This document shows, in pieces, positions 540 to 11,087 of a stretch of 11,087 nucleotides of DNA. Numbering within the stretch: the first letter of the stretch is position 1; each line of letters starts with the position of its first letter. The position numbers were made by a program, and so were the translations under genes. The notes beneath the pieces are model-generated. The model saw only the letters and a program-made list of their open reading frames with translations, was not told the origin of the DNA and did no database searches. Origin of the DNA: Acidobacteriota bacterium (lineage in GTDB: Bacteria > Acidobacteriota > UBA6911 > JACQSX01); contig DASXQR010000031.1 in the NCBI GenBank assembly GCA_036507075.1, positions 1 to 11,087 on the forward strand, in the 5' to 3' direction.

Positions 540-721
540 ACCTATCCGTTGTCAGTAGTCCGTTGTCCGTTGTCAATGTCTAAAGTCGAACGTCTCAAGG
601 TCGAAGGTCGGAAAACTGCATCTCTATTCGACCTTCAGACTTTCAACATTGACAACCGGACAACGGACCACTGACCACGGACTACGGACCACCGACCACG
701 GACCACTGACCACGGACAGGT
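540..721. repeat. Nested inverted heptamer tandem-repeat element: outer GTCCGTT-type / GGACCAC-type arms, inner GTCGAAG-type / TTCGACC-type arms
   Basis: Left arm ATCCGTT GTCAGTA GTCCGTT GTCCGTT (544-571). Right arm about nine GGACCAC-type units (658-720). Ends ACCTATCCGT (540-549) and ACGGACAGGT (712-721) are 9/10 complementary. GTTGTCAATGT (569-579) pairs perfectly with 646-656, and AAGGTCGAA (597-605) with TTCGACCTT (627-635). Confidence 0.9.
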
Positions 722-733
722 CGCTTTCGCGCC

Positions 734-762
734 TTCGCAGTTCATTCTTTCATGCGTATAAT
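734..762 (+). promoter_or_regulatory. Sigma70-type promoter of msrA (probably leaderless transcript)
   Basis: TTCGCA (734-739) - 17 nt - perfect TATAAT (757-762), 6 nt before ATG 769. No Shine-Dalgarno in between. Confidence 0.65.
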
Positions 763-768
763 AACCCC

Positions 769-1257
769 ATGGACAAGCCGAATATCGAGAAAGCCACTTT
801 TGCCGCAGGGTGTTTCTGGGGGGTTGAGGCGACCTTCCGCCGCATTCCGGGAGTCGCGGCTACCGCGGTGGGATACATCGGCGGGACGCTGCCCGAACCT
901 ACCTATGAGGACGTTTGCACCGATCGCACCGGACACGCCGAAGCGGTGGAAGTGCAATTCAATCCATCCAGAGTATCATACCGGGAATTGCTGAAGGTCT
1001 TCTGGGAAAACCATGATCCGACGACCCCTAACCGGCAGGGACCCGACGTGGGCACGCAGTATCGCTCGGCTATTTTCTATCACACGCCCGAGCAGGAGGC
1101 CGAGGCCAGCAATTCCAAAGAAGAATTGGAGCGCAGCGGAAGGTTCAAAAGACCAGTGGTCACTGAGATCGTCCCGGCCTCGCGCTTTTACCGCGCCGAA
1201 GACTACCACCAGCAGTATCTGGAAAAGCGGGGCCTGGCGCACTGCAGAATTGAGTAG
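769..1257 (+). CDS. msrA: Peptide-methionine (S)-S-oxide reductase MsrA
   Basis: Catalytic GCFWG motif, [44 protein letters not shown]. Start moved from 649 to ATG 769 because the extension is translated repeat and a -10 box lies at 757-762. Confidence 0.97.
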
Positions 1258-1263
1258 CCTCCA

Positions 1264-1358
1264 AATGCGGATTTCGGAATGCGGAATGCGGAATCTGTCT
1301 AACTTGGAGCTATAAGGGCTGAAACCAAATCACTTCCTATTCCGCATTCCACATTCGC
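1264..1358. repeat. Inverted heptamer tandem-repeat element (AATGCGG)n ... (ATTCCGC)n between convergent msrA and rho
   Basis: AATGCGG ATTTCGG AATGCGG AATGCGG AAT (1264-1294), 44-nt spacer, then ATTCCGC ATTCCAC ATTCGC (1339-1358). Confidence 0.85.
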
Positions 1359-1360
1359 GG

Positions 1361-1415
1361 CCTCGAATCTGCCTATGTGATAAGTCTGGACTGAGACGAA
1401 AACTTAGGCAGGAGG
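1361..1415. terminator. Possible stem-loop just downstream of rho
   Basis: CTGCCTA (1369-1375) pairs with TAGGCAG (1405-1411), with inner GTCT/AGAC and outer CCTC/GAGG. No good U-tract, so terminator function is uncertain. Confidence 0.3.
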
Positions 1416-1425
1416 TTCCAAACTC

Positions 1426-2727
<1,302 letters not shown>

Positions 2728-2750
2728 ATAAGTTCTCCAATTTCCAAACC

Positions 2751-3353
2751 TTATTGCAGGCCCTGCCGCGCTTCTGCGCCGGCACGCACCGCCCGGTTAA
2801 TCTCTTTCCAAATCTCTTTTAAGCCTTCCTTCTTTCGGGCCGAACAGGCGAGCAGCCCGAAGCCAAATTGCCCGCGCAATTCGCGCAGCCGCTTGTGTCT
2901 CTCACTCCCGCCGGAAGCGTCAATCTTGGTCGCCACCACGCGGAAGGGTACCGTCAGCGATTCAAGCCAGCACTTCATCTGTATGTCGATTTGCATCGGC
3001 GAATGGCGGCCGTCAACCAGCAGCAAGACCAGTGCCACTTGGTCGGAATCCTGAAAGAACTTTTCAGTGAACGATCCCCACCGGTCCCGCGCCTGCTTCG
3101 GGGCTCTGGCGAATCCGTAACCCGGAAGATCTATGAAATAGAATTTCTCGTCGACTAAAAAGAAATTCAAACGCTGAGTCCGCCCGGGCGTATGGCTGGT
3201 CTTAGCCAGCCCGCTCACGCCCACCAGAGCGTTAATCAGGCTCGATTTCCCTACATTTGAGCGACCTGCAAAGGCAATTCGGGGAAGCTTTGAGGCCGGA
3301 TACTGCTCTGAATCTCCAGCGCTGCACACAAAGCGGGCGCTGTGAAATTTCAT
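2751..3353 (-). CDS. engB: Ribosome biogenesis GTP-binding protein EngB/YihA/YsxC
   Basis: G1 [13 protein letters not shown]2 TPGRTQ, G3 DLPGYGFA, G4 TKID. Usual position after lon. Confidence 0.96.
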
Positions 3354-3404
3354 TCGTTTCGTTCAACAATTCGAGCTACTGCACTGCAACATCTGGATCG
3401 ATAC

Positions 3405-3500
3405 CGTGGAGACGCGACATGTCGCGTCTGAGCTCTGACGCGGCATGCCGCGTCTCTACGCTTGAAAATGTCCAAGAGATGCCCAGCGGGCCGCCTCTAC
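3405..3500. repeat. Cluster of GTAG-family REP-like palindromes (inverted doublet plus a degenerate third unit)
   Basis: Perfect palindromes AGACGCGACATGTCGCGTCT (3410-3429) and GACGCGGCATGCCGCGTC (3437-3454), bounded by CGTGGAG...CTCTACG (3405-3460). Third unit reads GTAGAGGCGGCCCGCTGGGCATCTC on the minus strand (3500-3476). Confidence 0.8.
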
Positions 3501-3527
3501 TAGTGCCAAATCAGGTGTTACGATGCA

Positions 3528-5951
3528 CTAGTGAGTAATCGATTCGTTAGGTTTCGGATGGTCCTGAGTCTCGAGTTTCGGCGGATATTCTTCCGTGGCC
3601 TTTTCCTTTAATGCCGTCAAGTTTAACGGTTTTTCGAGTGCAAGATCAAGCACTTCGTCCATCGTGTCGACCAGGTGGATATTCAGCGCCTCCAGCACGG
3701 CTGGGGGAATGTCGCGCAAATCCTTCTCATTCTCCTTGGGCAGAATGATGTGGCGAATGCCTGCCCGGTGCGCCGCCAGCAGCTTTTCCTTGACCCCTCC
3801 GATCGGCAGCACCTTGCCCCGCAGGGTGATTTCGCCGGTCATGGCGACGTCTTTGCGAACCGGTATCTTCGTCAGCGCCGAAACGATAGTGGTCGCCATG
3901 GTAATGCCTGCCGAAGGACCGTCCTTGGGGATCGCGCCCTCGGGAATGTGCACGTGCACGTCCAGCAACTTGTAAAAATCCTTGGTCAAGCCGTACGCGT
4001 CGGCCCGCGAACGAACGTATGAGATGGCCGCCTTGGCGGACTCCTGCATTACCTCACCCAACTTTCCGGTGAGCATCAGATCGCCTTTTCCTTCCATCGA
4101 AGTCGCCTCGGTCAGAAGCACTTCTCCTCCCACCTCGGTCCAGGCCAGGCCGGTCGCCAGGCCCACCTCGCTTTGCTGGGAAGCCAGGGACGGCCGGAAC
4201 TTGGCGATGCCCAGGTACTCGCGCACCAGGCTCTCCTCGACCTGCTGTTTGAACTCGACGCCTTCATCGGCGACGATCTTGCGGACCACTTTGCGGCAGA
4301 TATTTGCAATTTCGCGCTCCAACTGGCGCACGCCGGATTCCTTGGTATAGGAACGGATCATTTCAAGGATCGCGCCGTCGCTGAACGTCAACTGATCGGC
4401 GGTGATCCCCTGCGCTTCCAGTTGTTTTGTAACCAGAAACTGCTTGGCAATGTTGAGCTTCTCCAATTCGGTGTAACCCGACAGCATGATTACTTCCATA
4501 CGATCCTGCAGCGGCCGCGGGATCGAATGCAGCACGTTGGCCGTTGCGATAAACATTACCGAAGAGAGGTCAAACTCGGTATCCAGGTAATGGTCGACAA
4601 ATGCGTGGTTCTGTTCAGGATCGAGCACCTCAAGCAGCGCCGCGGAGGGATCTCCGCGGAAATCCATGCTCATCTTGTCCACTTCATCCAGCACAAAGAT
4701 CGGATTTCTGGATTCCGCCTTTTTCATCATCTGGATGATCTGCCCCGGCAGGGCGCCGATGTAGGTACGGCGATGTCCGCGGATTTCCGCTTCATCGCGC
4801 ACACCGCCGAGTGAAAGCCGGACAAACTTTCTACCGGTGGCACGGGCGATCGACCTGCCAAGCGAAGTCTTGCCCACACCCGGAGGCCCCACAAAGCAGA
4901 GAATTGAGCCTTGGGGCTTTTTCACGCGAGCACGCACAGCCAGAAACTCAAGGATGCGTTCCTTGATCTTGTCCAGGCCGTAATGGTCTTCGTTTAAGAT
5001 CTCCTCAGCCCGCTTGAGATCCTTCATTTCCCGCGTTCTTTTGTTCCAGGGCATGGCAATCAGCCAGTCCAGGTAGGTGCGCGAAACGGTCGATTCAGCC
5101 GACATGGGGGGCATCATTTCCAGCCGCTGGATTTCCTTTGTCGCCTTATCGTAGGCGTCCTTTGGCATTTCAGCTTCTTCAACCTTCTTCTTCAACTCGT
5201 CCATCTCGCTCTTTTCGTTGCGGCCGAGTTCTTTTTGAATCGCTTTGATCTTTTCATTCAGGTAGTACTCGCGCTGCGCTTTCTCCATCTGCTTGCGCAC
5301 GCGGCCCTGAATGTTCTTGTCCATCTTGATCTTCTCGATCTCGATTTCGATCAGCTCGTTGATTTTCTCGATCCTCTCAACGGGATCGAAAATCTCGAGC
5401 AGGCTTTGCTTCTCTTCCAGCGTGATGGGAAGGTTAGCCGCGATCGTGTCCGCCAGGCGGTCCGAATCGGTGCTGCGGGCCGCCTGAACAATGGTGTCGT
5501 AATTAATGTTGGGATTGAGTTTGGCAAATTGCTCAAAAAGACTGTTAAGCCTCTTGGCCAGAATGGAGCCCTTGGCCCGGGTGCCGGACTGGATCTCTTC
5601 GAACTGCACTTCAGCCACAAGATATCCATCGACGTCGGTCACCTCGACGGTCCGGGCCCGCCGGATTCCCTCCACCAGAACCTTGATATTGCCATCGGGC
5701 AGTCTCAGGCTCTGCACAATGTTGGCAACGGTCCCAACCGAGTAAATATCGCTGGACTTGGGATCGTCGACTGAGGCGTCAAGCTGAGTTGCCAGATAAA
5801 TCTTCTTGTCACCCTGCAAGGCCTTTTCCAGGGCCAGTACGGAAGGGGTGCGCCCGATCACGAATGGCACCATCATGTAAGGGAAAACCACCACATCCCT
5901 GATGGGCACCATCGGGTATTGCTGGGTTTCTCTGGTTTCAGTAGTGTTCAT
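3528..5951 (-). CDS. lon: ATP-dependent protease La (Lon)
   Basis: 807 aa. LON N-domain (PIRDVVVFP), Walker [27 protein letters not shown], catalytic PKDGPSAG (Ser) and GGVKEK (Lys). Confidence 0.99.
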
Positions 5952-6020
5952 ATTTTCATTAAATCCTCGAAGTAAACCGCCCGTCGAGGACAGCCGGATA
6001 AAAGTTCTGCTGTCTTAAAA

Positions 6021-6046
6021 GACGCCAAAACTCGGCAAAAGTTTCA
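6021..6046 (-). promoter_or_regulatory. ECF sigma-factor-type promoter upstream of lon
   Basis: Minus strand TGAAAC (6046-6041) - 16 nt - CGTC (6024-6021), matching the general ECF AAC/CGT architecture (Bacillus SigW/SigM-like). Confidence 0.6.
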
Positions 6047-6141
6047 GTCGGTCCGACAGCCCGAATCCTACTCCCCCTTCATAAGATCAAGGGAATCAAT
6101 AAGCAAGGCAGGGGAAAGGGGTTATTTAGGAACCCACCGGT

Positions 6142-7383
6142 TTATCCGGCTTTTTCAAGGAGCTTGAAGACGATTTCCTTATTCTCTACCATCTCTTTTG
6201 TGATTATGAATTCTTTTACCTTCTTTTGGGAAGGAAGTTCATACATCACGTCGAGCATGAGGTCTTCCATGATGAGACGAAGGCCGCGAGCACCAATTTT
6301 GCGCTCGATGGCGAGCGAGGCAATTGCGTGCAGGGCTTCCTCGCTGAATTTCAATGAGACGTTCTCAAATTCGAACATTTTCTGGTACTGCTTTACCAGA
6401 GCATTGTTCGGCTTGGTGAGAATGTCAATGAGGGCCTTTTGATCAAGCTCATGCAGAGTACACAGGATGGGCAACCGTCCCACGAATTCCGGAATTAGCC
6501 CATACTTGATCAGATCTTCCGGCAGCACCTGCAGCAGAATATTTGTGTCATTCGGTTTCCATTTGTTGCCGGCTTCCAGTTTGGCGCGAAACCCTAAAGA
6601 GTTTTTACCCAGACGCCGGCGAATAATCTTCTCCAGGCCGACGAAGGCGCCGCCGCATACGAATAAGATATTAGTGGTGTCGATCTGCACGAATTCCTGG
6701 TGAGGATGTTTGCGCCCGCCCTGCGGCGGGACATTGGCGACAGTTCCTTCCAGTATTTTCAACAGGGCCTGCTGCACTCCCTCGCCTGAAACGTCGCGAG
6801 TGATGGAGGGGTTCTCATCTTTTCGAGAAATCTTGTCAATTTCATCAATGTAAATGATCCCCTGCATGCAGCGGTCTTTGTCGCCGCCCGCCGCCTGCAA
6901 AAGCTTCAATATGATGTTTTCGACATCTTCACCCACGTAGCCGGCTTCAGTCAGCGTGGTAGCATCAACCAGCGCGAAGGGAACACTGAGCATTCGCGCC
7001 AGCGTCTGCGCAAGGAGCGTCTTGCCGGTGCCCGTCGGTCCAATCAGCAGCACGTTGCTCTTGGCAAGCTCGACATCCTGATGGCGACGCCGGCCGATCT
7101 TGATCCGCTTGTAATGATTGTAGACGGCGACTGCCAGCTTCTTTTTGGAAAGCTCCTGGCCGATTACATATTGATCCAGAAAATCCTTAATCTCGCTGGG
7201 CTTGGGAAGGCTGTCGCGGACGGTGGCCGACTCCTGGGTGATGTCATCAGAGATTATTTCATTGCAGACATCCACACATTCATCGCAGATGAAAACCGTG
7301 GGTCCTGCGATCAGCTTCTTGACGTCGTTCTGACTTTTGTTGCAGAAGCTGCAACGCAGGATGTCTTCGCCGTCCTTTTTCAA
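6142..7383 (-). CDS. clpX: ATP-dependent Clp protease ATP-binding subunit ClpX
   Basis: C4 zinc finger (CSFC...ICDEC), [49 protein letters not shown] loop. TTG start with AGGAGG RBS. Confidence 0.99.
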
Positions 7384-7424
7384 AAGGCCTCCTAATTCCG
7401 GTTGAAGAGGGGATCTGGCATAGG

Positions 7425-8012
7425 TCAGTCGCGCTTAGAAATTACCGAGTCGATTATACCATAGTCCTTTGCCTGAGCCGCCGTCATTATGAAATCACGC
7501 TCAACATCACTCTCGATTTTCTTGACGCTTTGACCGGTATGTGATGCCAGAATCCGATTGGTAACCTCCCTCAGCCGGAGAATCTCCCGCGCGTGAATAT
7601 CAATGTCGGTAGCCTGCCCGGAGAGGCCACCCATCGACGGCTGGTGAATCAAAATACGGGAATTTGGAAGCGCGAAACGCTTGGCTGACGATCCGGACGC
7701 CAGAAGCAGCGCGGCCATGCTGGCAGCCTGTCCGATGCAGTAGGTGATCACGTCATTCTTGATGAACTGCATGGTGTCATAAATGGCCATTCCCGCGGTG
7801 ATCGAGCCGCCGGGCGAATTGATATAAAGCGAGATCTCCTTTTCCGGGTCCTCGGCTTCCAGAAAGAGCAACTGGGCGGTCACTACGTTAGCGATAGTGT
7901 CGTCAATCGGCGCACCCAAAAAAATGATGTTGTCTTTCAGCAGCCGCGAGTAAATATCGTAGGCTCTCTCGCCACGGTTGGTCTGCTCCACAACCATCGG
8001 AATTAATGTCAC
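7425..8012 (-). CDS. clpP: ATP-dependent Clp protease proteolytic subunit ClpP
   Basis: [22 protein letters not shown] (catalytic Ser), IHQP (His), ERDF (Asp). GTG start overlaps the tig stop (GTGA), GAGGTG RBS. Confidence 0.99.
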
Positions 8013-9328
8013 GGCGACACCTCATCAACTCTTGCGCTGTCCAGAACCAGTTTCATTGCCTTTCTTGATTTCAACCGGTCCCTCAACTCTTCCATCCGGT
8101 TCTCCTTCTCATAGTGTAGCGCGATTTTTTCCACGGCTTGCTTCTCGATTTTCGCGATACGTTCCAATTCATCATCAAGTTCGTCCTCGGAAGGATCCAG
8201 GGCTTCCGCCTGGGCAATCCTGTTGAGCACCAGAGCGGCGCGCACGTCGCGCTCGCTCGGTTCGTTCAGGTCGTCCTTTATTTTTTGCCAGTTCACACCG
8301 CTGCGGGCCGGATCCACGCCGCGGCTGGCCAGTTCCAAAGCAAAGTTTTGAATCTTTTGCTGCACCCTGTCTTCCACCAGCACGGCTGGAACTTCAAATC
8401 GGTTGCGGTCCAGCAACTGATCAATCGCCTGCTCCTGCATCGCTGTCTCCAGTTCGTGCTGCCGCCGGTGCTCGATGTCCTGTCCGATTTCACGGCGCAA
8501 TTGTTCCAGGCTTTCACAATCCTTTCCAATCTCCTTTGCAAAATCATCGTCTACCCGGGGCAGTGTTTTCTCCTTGATGTTCTTCAGCGTCACTTTGTAA
8601 CGAATCGACTTTCCAGCGAATTCCTTTCGGGCGAAGTCGTCCACATAGTCTACCGTGAACTCGCGGGTTTCTCCCGGCACAGCGCCGGTGAGGCTGTCGG
8701 TAAACTCAGGCAACGTTCTTTCATCACCCAGAAGGAGCGACCCGCCTTCCTCTTTCAGCGGCTCTTCATCCGTGGGCTCATTAGATTCCTTGTCAATGCC
8801 GGTTCCTTCAATGTCTGCAACCACCTGGTCTCCGGTTTGAGCCCCTCTTCCCTGCACCGGAATGAACTTGGCCAGCTTCTCACGCAGACTATCTATCACT
8901 TGATCGATGTCTTCGTCTGTAACCGGCTTCACCTTCTTTTCCAGGCGCAATCCTTTGTACTCACCGAGCTCGAATTCGGGAGCGACCTCGAACACTGCTT
9001 CGTACTGGAGAGGCTGTCCAACCTGAAAATCCAGTTTTTCAATCCGCGGCAGCGCCAGGGGCTTCAGGTCTCGAGATTTGACCGCCTCATCGTAGGATTT
9101 CGGCACCAGATCGTGGATCAACTCGTCCTTGATCTCATTCTTGAAGCGACTGCGGATTAATCCCAGCGGCGCTTTCCCCGGACGAAAGCCTGGAATGCGC
9201 GCCAGCGAAGCGATTTTGCGTGAGACTTCTTCGTAAGCTCTCCTGGTCTCCTCTTCCGGTATTTCCACCTTCAGTTTCTTCTTTACCGAAGAGAGATCCT
9301 CGAGTTCGATTTTTACTTCCATAGGCAC
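8009..9328 (-). CDS. tig: Trigger factor (ribosome-associated chaperone/PPIase)
   Basis: Ribosome-binding signature [14 protein letters not shown]-like middle domain, DDDFAK motif, directly upstream of clpP. Start is GTG 9328 or ATG 9322. Confidence 0.97.
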
Positions 9329-9335
9329 AAAATCA

Positions 9336-9365
9336 CTTATACGTTGTGTAGATCACAAATGTCAA
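9336..9365 (-). promoter_or_regulatory. Sigma70-type promoter of the tig-clpP-clpX operon
   Basis: Minus strand perfect TTGACA (9365-9360) - 18 nt - TATAAG (9341-9336). The spacer contains the palindrome TTGTG-N5-CACAA (9344-9358). Confidence 0.6.
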
Positions 9366-9401
9366 AGAATCGGGCCAGGCAGCAATGGTCTGGTTTGTGC
9401 T

Positions 9402-9687
9402 GCCATCGGGAAAAAGGACTTCACCACAGGGGCACAGCCCGGCCGCAGGCCGCAACCAAAAAGCCGTCCACGTTCACGAGCACGTGCACGTCAACGACCA
9501 CGTCTCGGGTCCACGTTCACGACAACATACAGACAGCCCCGCAATTCTGCGTAGTCTGGGACGAAGCGAGCCCAGTTGTAAACGTAATCGTAGACGTTGA
9601 CGTGCACGTGCTCGTAGACGTGGACGGCTTTTTGGTTGCGGCCTGCGGCCGGGCTGTGCCCTGTGGTGAAGTCTTTTTCGTGATGGC
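9402..9687. repeat. 286-bp composite long inverted repeat (MITE/REP-like, multi-layered)
   Basis: Arms 9402-9496 and 9595-9687 pair at 89 of 95 positions, including a perfect 44-bp stretch (9430-9473 with 9618-9661) and a perfect 21-bp stretch (9476-9496 with 9595-9615). Inner arms are GTNCAC-type hexamer repeats. Confidence 0.95.
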
Positions 9688-10442
9688 TACCGGGCCAGGA
9701 ACTCGCGCAGCTTGCGCACCGCTTTCCCTCGATGACTGAGCTCGTTCTTTTCGGCACGAGTGAGTTCGGCCATGGTCTTTTCCGCCTCCGGTACCAGAAA
9801 AACGGGATCATAGCCAAAACCGCCGGTGCCCTGCGGCCTGGAAACGATGAATCCGCGACACTCTGATTCACAGAAGAACTGCTCTTCGCCGTTATCGTAA
9901 TAACTCAGCGCGCAAACAAAGCGGGCCGGAGATAGAACGTCATAACCGGGGACCTTTGGCACATCCACACTGCCGATTTCAAAAGACTCCATTTGTTTGA
10001 ACTTCTCCTCGGCGGTCAATGGTCGCACCTTGTCCAAACGCGTGGATGTCGCCGAAGAACCTGGCTCGCGCCGCTTCGCTTTCGCCTCGGATCGAAGGGC
10101 GCCGCTTTCACGACTTACCTGTTTGATCTCTTGCAGCAGCTTTTCGATCCGATCGTGATCGGAAGCCGCCGCGCCGGCATAACGCGCCGAGTGAATGCCC
10201 GGCGCGCCTCCCAGAAGTTCCACCTCCAGCCCGGAATCATCGGCGACCACCGGCATTCCCGTGAGCCCGTGGAAGTGGGCTGCTTTTTCTCGCGCGTTTT
10301 CAGCAAACGTGATCCCGCTCTCCTGAAACGGGTCGAGCCCGGGAATGTCATTCAGAGACACCAGTGCTACATGCGGCAATCGGAGAAGCTCTCTAAATTC
10401 GGAGAACTTTCCCGTGTTTGAAGTGGCGATTAACAGCTTCAT
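9687..10442 (-). CDS. rdgB: Non-canonical purine NTP pyrophosphatase (RdgB/HAM1, dITP/XTP pyrophosphatase) with internal insertion
   Basis: ATSNTGK, TFAENAREKA, ADDSGLEV, GAPGIHSARYAG, GFGYDPVF, KNELSHRGKA. 251 aa versus about 200 typical. Confidence 0.95.
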   Translation of the reverse strand: MKLLIATSNTGKFSEFRELLRLPHVALVSLNDIPGLDPFQESGITFAENAREKAAHFHGLTGMPVVADDSGLEVELLGGAPGIHSARYAGAAASDHDRIEKLLQEIKQVSRESGALRSEAKAKRREPGSSATSTRLDKVRPLTAEEKFKQMESFEIGSVDVPKVPGYDVLSPARFVCALSYYDNGEEQFFCESECRGFIVSRPQGTGGFGYDPVFLVPEAEKTMAELTRAEKNELSHRGKAVRKLREFLAR

Positions 10443-10939
10443 CCGATCGGTTCAACATCTGAGGCGTCGATCTCGAGGGCTACCGACTGCTGAATAAGGT
10501 CGACCGAGAGAATGAATTTGAACTTGTTCTTCTTTTTCAACAGTATTCCCTGCATGCCTCTCAGGGCGCCCCGCCGGATTTCCACGCGCTGGCCCACCTT
10601 TACATAAGGGTAAGGATCATACTTGATGGTCGTTTGCAGGAAAGTCTGGATCGCCTGGATCTGCTCATCGGGGATTGGTTCGGCACGGTTGTCAAAGCCG
10701 ATGATCCGGGCCACTCCGGGCACTTTGACAATGTCAAGCCGCCGCTGCTGCATCGGGACATGCACAAACAGATAACCTGTGAAAAGTGGAATATGGACTC
10801 GCTGCTTGCGATCCTTCCACTGGCTCAGCACTTCGCGCAGCGGCAGGAAGGTTTCGATACTCTTACGCTGAAGTTCCTCTTCAACGACCTTTTCGTGGCG
10901 CGAACGTGTGTAAACGGCGTACCAGCGCATTTCATCCAT
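10439..10939 (-). CDS. Specialised NusG paralogue, UpxY/RfaH-family transcription antiterminator (NGN + KOW)
   Basis: WYAVYTRSRHEK, FLPL...WKDRK...PLFTGYLFV NGN domain, KOW motif VGQRVEIRRGALRGMQG. The WxDRK segment is UpxY-like rather than housekeeping NusG. Stop overlaps the rdgB start (ATGA). Confidence 0.9.
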   Translation of the reverse strand: MDEMRWYAVYTRSRHEKVVEEELQRKSIETFLPLREVLSQWKDRKQRVHIPLFTGYLFVHVPMQQRRLDIVKVPGVARIIGFDNRAEPIPDEQIQAIQTFLQTTIKYDPYPYVKVGQRVEIRRGALRGMQGILLKKKNKFKFILSVDLIQQSVALEIDASDVEPIG

Positions 10940-10979
10940 GCGCTTAAATTACCACCGGCGTGGTGGTGTTTGCCACCTC

Positions 10980-11087
10980 GATGGGGATGGAGGGAGGGAG
11001 GGAGGGATGGATGGATGGAGTTATGGAGAGATGGAGGGATGGAGGGATGGAGGGATGGAGGGAGGGAGGGATAGAGGGATGGAGGGA
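10980..11087. repeat. Purine-rich octamer/tetramer tandem repeat (GGAGGGAT)n, truncated by the window end
   Basis: 108 nt with no C on the + strand. Units GGAGGGAT, GGAGGGAG, GGAGAGAT, GGAGTTAT. Confidence 0.92.

Follow-up and report, generated by a model that had tools for sequence, protein, structure and literature searches.

Contig C31 of an Acidobacteriota genome assembly (GCA_036507075.1, called G000 here; 6.1 Mb in 233 contigs) carries repeats between its protein genes, and it raises the question of what these repeats are and by what means they spread. We analyzed this contig over its entire length of 11,087 nucleotides, referred to as the window. A preliminary description made from the sequence had taken five intergenic elements, E1 to E5, for gene-less copies of a mobile or cassette system that recognizes structure rather than sequence, and repeats were indeed found in all five spacers at the positions that it gave. 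They turned out to be members of several separate multi-copy families, and for four of the five elements (the arms of E1, E2 and E4, and the palindrome of E3) we found matching cassettes filled with a small gene. Because such arm-enclosed genes carry a motif of DNA-uptake genes, the window repeats likely spread, or act, during DNA uptake, as judged from sequence comparison. The parts of the elements are as follows (forward-strand coordinates of the window).

545 to 574: E1 outer left arm, heptamer array of the GTCCGTT family, 4.3 copies; about 169 loci in the genome
582 to 613: E1 inner left arm, degenerate heptamers of the AAAGTCG/GTCGAAG family
627 to 650: E1 inner right arm plus a junction complementary to 575-581; inverted repeats, predicted fold
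651 to 718: E1 outer right arm, reverse complement of the GTCCGTT family, about 9 copies
1264 to 1294: E2 left arm, AATGCGG array; the largest family, with 359 rows in Tandem Repeats Finder (TRF)
1295 to 1338: E2 core, a degenerate, family-specific spacer of 44 bases; weak ungapped score of 9.6 bits
1339 to 1356: E2 right arm, inverted repeat
3376 to 3531: E3 composite frame with imperfect terminal inverted repeats and no tandem arms, overlapping the lon stop codon
3405 to 3460: E3 doublet of repetitive extragenic palindromes (REPs), that is, a REPIN, of the GTAG type; about 95 loci and 156 half-sites
9412 to 9463: E4 left end, remnant of a CACAGAG-type array plus a hairpin "head"; 97 heads in the genome
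9464 to 9524: E4 left GTNCAC arm
9525 to 9588: E4 core, about 21 to 28 genomic copies
9589 to 9678: E4 right GTNCAC arm plus a mirror head that replaces the usual tail; inverted repeats
10985 to 11087: E5 left arm, octamer array of GGAGGGAT, cut by the contig end

Tandem arrays of this kind are overwhelmingly opposed throughout the genome. Among 2647 de-duplicated arrays with periods of 6 to 10, the nearest related array within 300 bp was opposed in 543 cases, same-directional in 10 and ambiguous in 1; at 1000 bp the counts were 570 opposed and 24 same-directional, compared with about 50 of each in a control with permuted units. The excess over random microsatellites on which the preliminary description depended is thus real. 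The polarity of the left arm is fixed as well, in 144 of 151 pairs for AATGCGG, 23/25 for GTCCGTT, 15/16 for AAAGTCG and 18/20 for GGAGGGAT. No arm type of the window is single-copy; each has between 14 and about 300 relatives in the genome, BLAST giving approximate counts of 169 loci for the E1 outer arm, 14 for the E1 inner arm, 305 for E2, 95 for the E3 REP, 21 for the E4 core and 90 for E5. Single-stranded DNA folds of the four complete elements beat pair-shuffled controls (z of -9.3, -4.3, -4.5 and -20.5). The mirrored tandem-arm design proposed for all four does not extend to E3, which has no tandem-repeat arms and whose outer inverted-repeat frame is unpaired in the predicted fold; E3 is an ordinary REPIN.

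The idea of an architecture without common sequence was borne out between families and not within them, where the spacers are homologous. In AATGCGG pairs, the spacers are homologous to one another and form a degenerate core that measures about 44 bases (94 of 146 pairs lie close to the modal length), and E2 as a whole matches the copy at C187:73782 with 83% identity over 96 bases. A core common to different arm types was considered and rejected, those matches of the AATGCGG core that had arms being of the AATGCGG type. The outer/inner combination of E1 occurs at 8 genomic loci including the window copy (the pattern gave 11 matches, from which one repeat match on the same locus, one partial match and one spurious match were excluded). 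E4, described earlier as three nested layers, instead travels as one family of about 21 to 28 copies, most of which have unlike left and right ends: of the 97 heads in the genome, 14 have a mirror head behind them and 28 a tail. The window copy is a symmetrized form; most members of the family have the head at their left end and an unlike tail at their right. The repeats of the window are thus several separate families, the alignable ones each with its own core, and not one sequence-blind design.

Arms of these types do enclose genes elsewhere, as the preliminary description had suggested for four-helix-bundle and GxxExxY proteins; we observed both in G000 and in relatives. G000 contains 7 four-helix-bundle loci (8 matches), 6 GxxExxY loci and 12 PF01797 loci. 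The E1 outer unit flanks a four-helix-bundle gene at C88:58555-58935 and the E4 unit another at C37:4140-4481, while the E1 inner unit does so in G001 (L168) and G003 (L171) and the E2 unit in G001 (L179). By profile match the four-helix-bundle cargo is PF05635, the 23S rRNA intervening sequence (IVS) type, and it matches structures 2gsc and 2rld. GxxExxY is a PD-(D/E)XK-family protein, full length in 4 of 5 aligned G000 copies. Genes enclosed by E1-, E2- or E4-type tandem arms belong to PF05635 or PF13366; no HUH gene was found between tandem arms of E1, E2, E4 or E5, nor any cassette with the E5 unit. The Y1 genes of G000 have palindromes of their own, and one of them sits inside an AATGCGG arm. 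For E3, the corresponding gene is a RAYT (C88:75569-76111; NF047646 match with E of 2.6e-11, below the curated cutoff), which carries the motif described below and is flanked by the E3 REP; two half-sites of this REP lie no more than 500 bases away, and there are further variants. Broken or deleted cassettes are numerous.

The association extends well beyond this genome. Opposed arms were present at 32 of 49 four-helix-bundle loci of the same class and, across many phyla, at 44 of 80 loci (the best 80 of 598 confirmed loci, among at least 600 matches), where 2 had same-direction arms only; none of 124 control pairs were opposed. The period was 7 in 74 of 76 opposed pairs around four-helix-bundle genes and 8 to 10 in all 10 pairs around GxxExxY genes, an array pair having been detected at 10 of 28 GxxExxY loci. 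The repeat unit differed by at most one base in 12/12 protein pairs with more than 70% identity and in about 1% of pairs below 40%, and period and unit correlated with the cargo protein (Spearman -0.23, permutation p 0.001), both measures including kin that are not independent. Since period tracks the cargo and unit tracks protein similarity, the comparison suggests that proteins and repeats form cognate pairs or, at a minimum, are inherited together.

Gene-less copies could, for two families, be traced to gene-bearing ones. Fourteen GTNCAC copies without a gene terminate in what remains of a four-helix-bundle gene, its final codons; a strict pattern finds the motif in 8 of the 14. One copy aligned to cassette L182 gave two collinear blocks with about 300 bases missing. 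In G109, all 5 gene-less copies tested were two-block matches to a GxxExxY cassette. The view of the window elements as cargo-less forms thus gains support: they are gene-less and multi-copy, and the GTNCAC gene-less form is an internal deletion of a cassette. As the gene-less derivatives lie at unrelated sites, they must have multiplied after the gene was lost. The E4 head also precedes the four-helix-bundle cassettes L182 and L183, and E4 itself belongs to a sister subfamily with a core that could not be traced to a cassette. One locus (L030, C57:18376-18805) has a DUF7674 gene behind a GTNCAC arm and the motif, at the place where deleted cassettes keep their remnant; this gene is possibly captured new cargo.

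The upstream motif, which the preliminary description had overlooked, consists of two blocks, roughly TTTCGCAGATTT and CRGTTATGT, separated by about 10 bases. It was derived from 19 cassette and Y1 genes picked by eye from 25 loci, with no competence gene among them; the seeds left out, which had no motif by eye or no upstream DNA, were one four-helix-bundle, one GxxExxY and four Y1 loci, and the motif later recovered two of these four Y1 loci. At 18 bits or more, there are 76 sites in G000 and 2 in the shuffled genome. The motif is present at 6/7 four-helix-bundle, 5/6 GxxExxY and 10/12 PF01797 loci, and at 15 of 23 four-helix-bundle loci in five close relatives. It also precedes ssb, comEA, recA, comM, a minor pilin gene, radC, recQ, recG and pcrA, as well as comEC, comF, dprA and an ERCC4 nuclease gene. 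Family searches covered 39 of the 80 open reading frames (ORFs) downstream of motif sites; 17 of the 39 had no family match, and some sites stand ahead of unrelated genes. Scores were below zero for lexA, two uvrA genes, uvrC and 8 window genes, and an SOS regulon was rejected because lexA, uvrA and uvrC lack the motif. None of the five window elements contains it.

Variants of the motif are visible in other families of the class. Patterns written from the comM, dprA and GxxExxY leaders of G109 and G083 gave 17 and 24 sites, respectively, and none in reversed controls, a different variant marking cassettes and competence genes alike in each genome. The G109 pattern newly found recA, ssb and a pilin gene, and that of G083 newly found ssb, comEA, a four-helix-bundle gene and Y1 genes. 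The analysis establishes this motif link between cassettes and competence only within part of a single class. Judging from its shape and from its position just ahead of start codons, the motif is probably the promoter of an alternative sigma factor.

Several loci attached to the motif deserve mention in their own right. An XRE regulator gene, an extracytoplasmic function (ECF)-type sigma factor gene and a zinc-finger anti-sigma gene (L020, C17:70859-72725) lie near recG together with three motif sites, and the sigma factor at C17:71533-72081 is a candidate regulator of the motif; close homologues of the locus are present in G001, G023 and G021, with none close in G003 or G109. In G083, seven near-identical Y1 transposase genes of about 300 residues (L362, L364, L367, L368, L373, L374 and L377) carry the competence-type motif, apparently an insertion sequence tied to competence. 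Five motif-led ORFs without a Pfam or NCBIfam match (L025, L026, L027 and L032; the C28 pair, C97:18644, C48:57222 and C87:5624) are candidates for new competence proteins. The C28 pair encodes related coiled-coil-like proteins, and homologues of C97:18644 stand behind the motif in G083.

The explanation that we favor, with modest confidence, is that competence-induced cassettes act on their own hairpins within single-stranded DNA that is being taken up and thereby spread gene-less copies, whether as selfish or as domesticated elements. The full-length form would be an arm, a competence-type motif, one small gene and a mirror arm. Cassettes would be expressed as single-stranded DNA enters the cell, the arms would fold in that DNA, and each protein would recognize its own unit: four-helix-bundle proteins the heptamers, GxxExxY nucleases the 8- to 10-mers and RAYTs the REPs. 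Between cells, copies could move by homologous recombination of their flanks; to new sites, they could move by cutting or template switching at the hairpins. A bolder version, which we put forward only tentatively and think somewhat doubtful, is that four-helix-bundle and GxxExxY proteins, two very large orphan families, are sequence-specific movers of transposase-free mobile DNA that rides natural transformation, each protein being paired with a unit of 6 to 10 bases, and that together with the RAYTs they would form a guild of competence-induced elements that writes the heptamer repeats of bacteria, for which an explanation has long been lacking.

A number of observations weigh against this explanation. 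To our knowledge, no catalytic site or chemistry has been described for the four-helix-bundle protein, and this is its weakest step. Among the cassettes found in G000, none belongs to AATGCGG, the largest family, or to AAAGTCG. The E2 and E4 cores match neither the motif nor the cassette leaders, and for that reason the descent of these two elements from cassettes would follow from arm identity only. No empty, single-layer or cargo-filled allele of the same insertion was found in G001, G003, G004 or G005, where the spacers are unalignable and have either other units or none; the nearest genomes belong only to the same family, and the spacers are too distant to align. Elsewhere in the class, the G000 motif matrix fails in most families, reaching 15 bits or more at only 1/29 four-helix-bundle, 2/30 dprA and 2/24 GxxExxY loci, and neither dprA nor comF nor comEC was among the matches of the G109 pattern. 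Inspection by eye of 30 genomes from other phyla revealed no motif common with comM or dprA, and at the many-phyla loci the arm usually abuts the gene, with less than 90 bases to the match start in 32 of 44. Finally, the matching of unit and protein may be plain co-inheritance.

Related proposals about the cores did not hold. A derivation of all empty cores from decayed promoters was rejected for AATGCGG and five other families and is weak for AAAGCGCG and GTNCAC; the E4 core, compared with the promoter-like motif, showed no convincing match. The suggestion that the AATGCGG core is the arm-to-promoter leader of cassettes was unsupported (1 of 23 leaders at p<0.05).

Among the other explanations, the one that survives best, though we think it improbable, is that the cassette genes are competence-induced host tools that tune recombination in the manner of Neisseria SsnA, with the repeats as selected marks and their spread secondary. 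SsnA cuts the hairpin repeat that flanks its gene in transforming DNA, and it lowers transformation by repeat-bearing DNA (PMC11893778). The cassette motif is that of core uptake and recombination genes, and the elements are dense and nearly all intergenic, with only 14 of 495 paired elements inside crude ORF calls. Behind the motif in G109 there is also an 80-residue GIY-YIG gene (L350, G109:C1:3307099) whose size and domain fit an Ssn-like nuclease. The broken and deleted cassettes, the turnover of units and the multi-copy Y1 genes with the motif nevertheless fit hitchhiking better. Turnover is evident between close genomes at one and the same spacer: between tig and rdgB, G001 has no arrays, G004 has one AATGCGG-type arm and G003 has GTNCAC elements.

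The Ssn/NTS-SRM system of Neisseria is similar in arrangement: a hairpin repeat flanks the small gene to which it belongs and recurs without the gene in hundreds of intergenic copies, and there is a link to transforming single-stranded DNA (PMC11893778). Ssn proteins, however, are GIY-YIG nucleases with hairpins of 20 to 50 bases, whereas here the cargo is PF05635 or PF13366, the arms are tandem 6- to 10-mers, the elements measure 100 to 290 bases and the activity is a predicted one. A GIY-YIG single-domain nuclease between repeats, which defines the Ssn/SRM type, does not occur in G000. Its only short GIY-YIG gene (L399, C5:1190-1396) lies directly behind a tRNA-like sequence, recognized as such by eye, the 3' part of which is repeated after the gene; it has neither motif nor arms.

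A less probable explanation places the function at the RNA level, the elements being stems for RNase III processing or for termination, as in the 23S IVS, that grew by slippage and were mirrored by template switching with no dedicated enzyme. Element edges lie 0 to 30 bases behind a stop codon in 250 of 459 measured cases, arm-to-arm copying is visible in E4, and the cargo is the IVS protein PF05635, IVS stems being cut by RNase III (PMC4990558). This account leaves unexplained the family cores at dozens of unrelated sites, the multiplied deletion derivatives and the competence motif. The orientation of flanking genes is near the background (238 co-directional, 116 convergent and 74 divergent, compared with 1411, 559 and 565), and the window has no Rfam match. 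ORF-bearing 23S rRNA IVS do have the same protein family (S23p, PF05635/TIGR02436) between terminal inverted repeats (PMC4990558), but the window elements lie between protein genes, outside rRNA genes, and their families have tandem arms, a motif of their own and gene-less derivatives.

The nested arrangement of the elements was the original reason to think of insertion into hairpins. Concentricity itself is real: where a cluster holds a complete pair from each of two families, the arrangement was concentric in 12 cases, with none side by side and none interleaved, and in combinations of AATGCGG and GTCCGTT either family can be the outer one. The nested cases do not, however, show an element inserted within a hairpin, as the spacer of the outer family is missing rather than split (gap sums of 12 to 29 bases, compared with the 44-base AATGCGG core). 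Inner cores are intact where recognizable, and several junctions are complementary on both sides. Because the outer spacer is lost, the junctions are complementary and the E1 combination recurs, we infer that concentric forms most likely arise by arm-to-arm copying, after which the composite spreads as a unit. A single enzyme that reads hairpin structure whatever the sequence and inserts elements into old loops, although it would account for concentric nesting in both orders, is accordingly very unlikely, since the period (7 versus 8 to 10) tracks the cargo, the unit tracks protein similarity, the outer spacers are lost with complementary junctions and the E1 and E4 combinations recur as families.

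Several known systems come close to the families described here. The RAYT/REPIN and REP/BIME systems are similar in their gene-less families with conserved arms and variable cores, and E3 belongs here directly, with its REP doublet, its many intergenic copies and a RAYT flanked by the same REP; E1, E2, E4 and E5 differ in having tandem-array arms and no HUH gene between them. A competence tie of RAYTs is on record in Escherichia coli, where yafM is induced with competence (Sinha 2009, cited in PMC5581495). The sharing of one upstream motif by comEA, comEC, comF, comM, dprA, a pilin gene, radC, ssb and recA resembles a competence regulon. Such regulons are exemplified by Sxy/CRP-S and ComX. Miniature inverted-repeat transposable elements (MITEs) are internal-deletion derivatives of insertion sequences that multiply without a gene. 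The 14 deleted GTNCAC copies of G000 and the GxxExxY copies of G109 are likewise multi-copy internal deletions of a gene-bearing element, and they differ in that the parent gene is not of a recognized transposase family.

Intergenic tandem arrays of 7 to 8 bases have been reported from Xanthomonas and Nostoc (PMC4692102), Geobacter metallireducens (PMC2700814) and Beggiatoaceae (TAACTGA; PMC4679880), partly with opposed pairs in Xanthomonas and Geobacter, and were interpreted as quadruplexes or regulator sites. The passages covered of these three papers contain no link to four-helix-bundle or GxxExxY genes or to competence, although the supplements of PMC2700814 may list enclosed genes. In the literature covered, which leaves out most subscription journals, we found nothing that links tandem arms, these cassette genes and competence. 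The arrangement belongs to the repeat-gene-repeat type known from RAYT/REPIN and Ssn/NTS, and its tandem-armed families and cassettes were not found in print in that literature. It offers a testable function and trigger for two large uncharacterized protein families and may explain where the surplus of heptamer repeats between bacterial genes comes from; for an uncultured soil lineage, it predicts a promoter and a regulon of competence. Should GxxExxY proteins cleave single-stranded DNA at the arms of their own cassettes, they would join Ssn as a second family of single-strand nucleases with site specificity, each encoded next to its own substrate.

The assembly of the window was checked against sequencing data. 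Sampled words of G000 were present in two soil-metagenome runs at 96% and 91%. Over positions 545-1289, a contig from a second run is identical to the window. For E4, contigs of runs X1 and X2 connect each flank to a head, and none of the contigs listed spans the entire element. Read joints that skip the inner layer of E1 (572 to 661 and 575 to 659) rest on 24 to 30 bases with 85% likeness, probably come from other copies and were left unused. Apparent core inversions at C167:9319 and C83:29972 could be misassemblies and were likewise not used. Contigs C58 and C179 both start with the E5 array, and either could continue E5.

Family searches identified a cupin gene, msrA, yihA/engB, rdgB and an UpxY-type gene in the window; rho, lon, clpX, clpP and tig were named from their translations. 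The yihA/engB gene (2751-3353) stands between lon and rho in the window and in G005, and not in G001 or G004. The RdgB/HAM1 protein (9687-10442) matches its family over residues 2-112 and again over 173-249, which leaves a stretch of about 60 residues unmatched. Three relatives have orthologues shorter by about 40 residues, and the stretch is possibly an in-frame insertion. Directly upstream of the rdgB-tig-clpP-clpX-lon series lies a gene for an UpxY-family NusG paralogue (10439-10939), an arrangement also present in G001 and G003.

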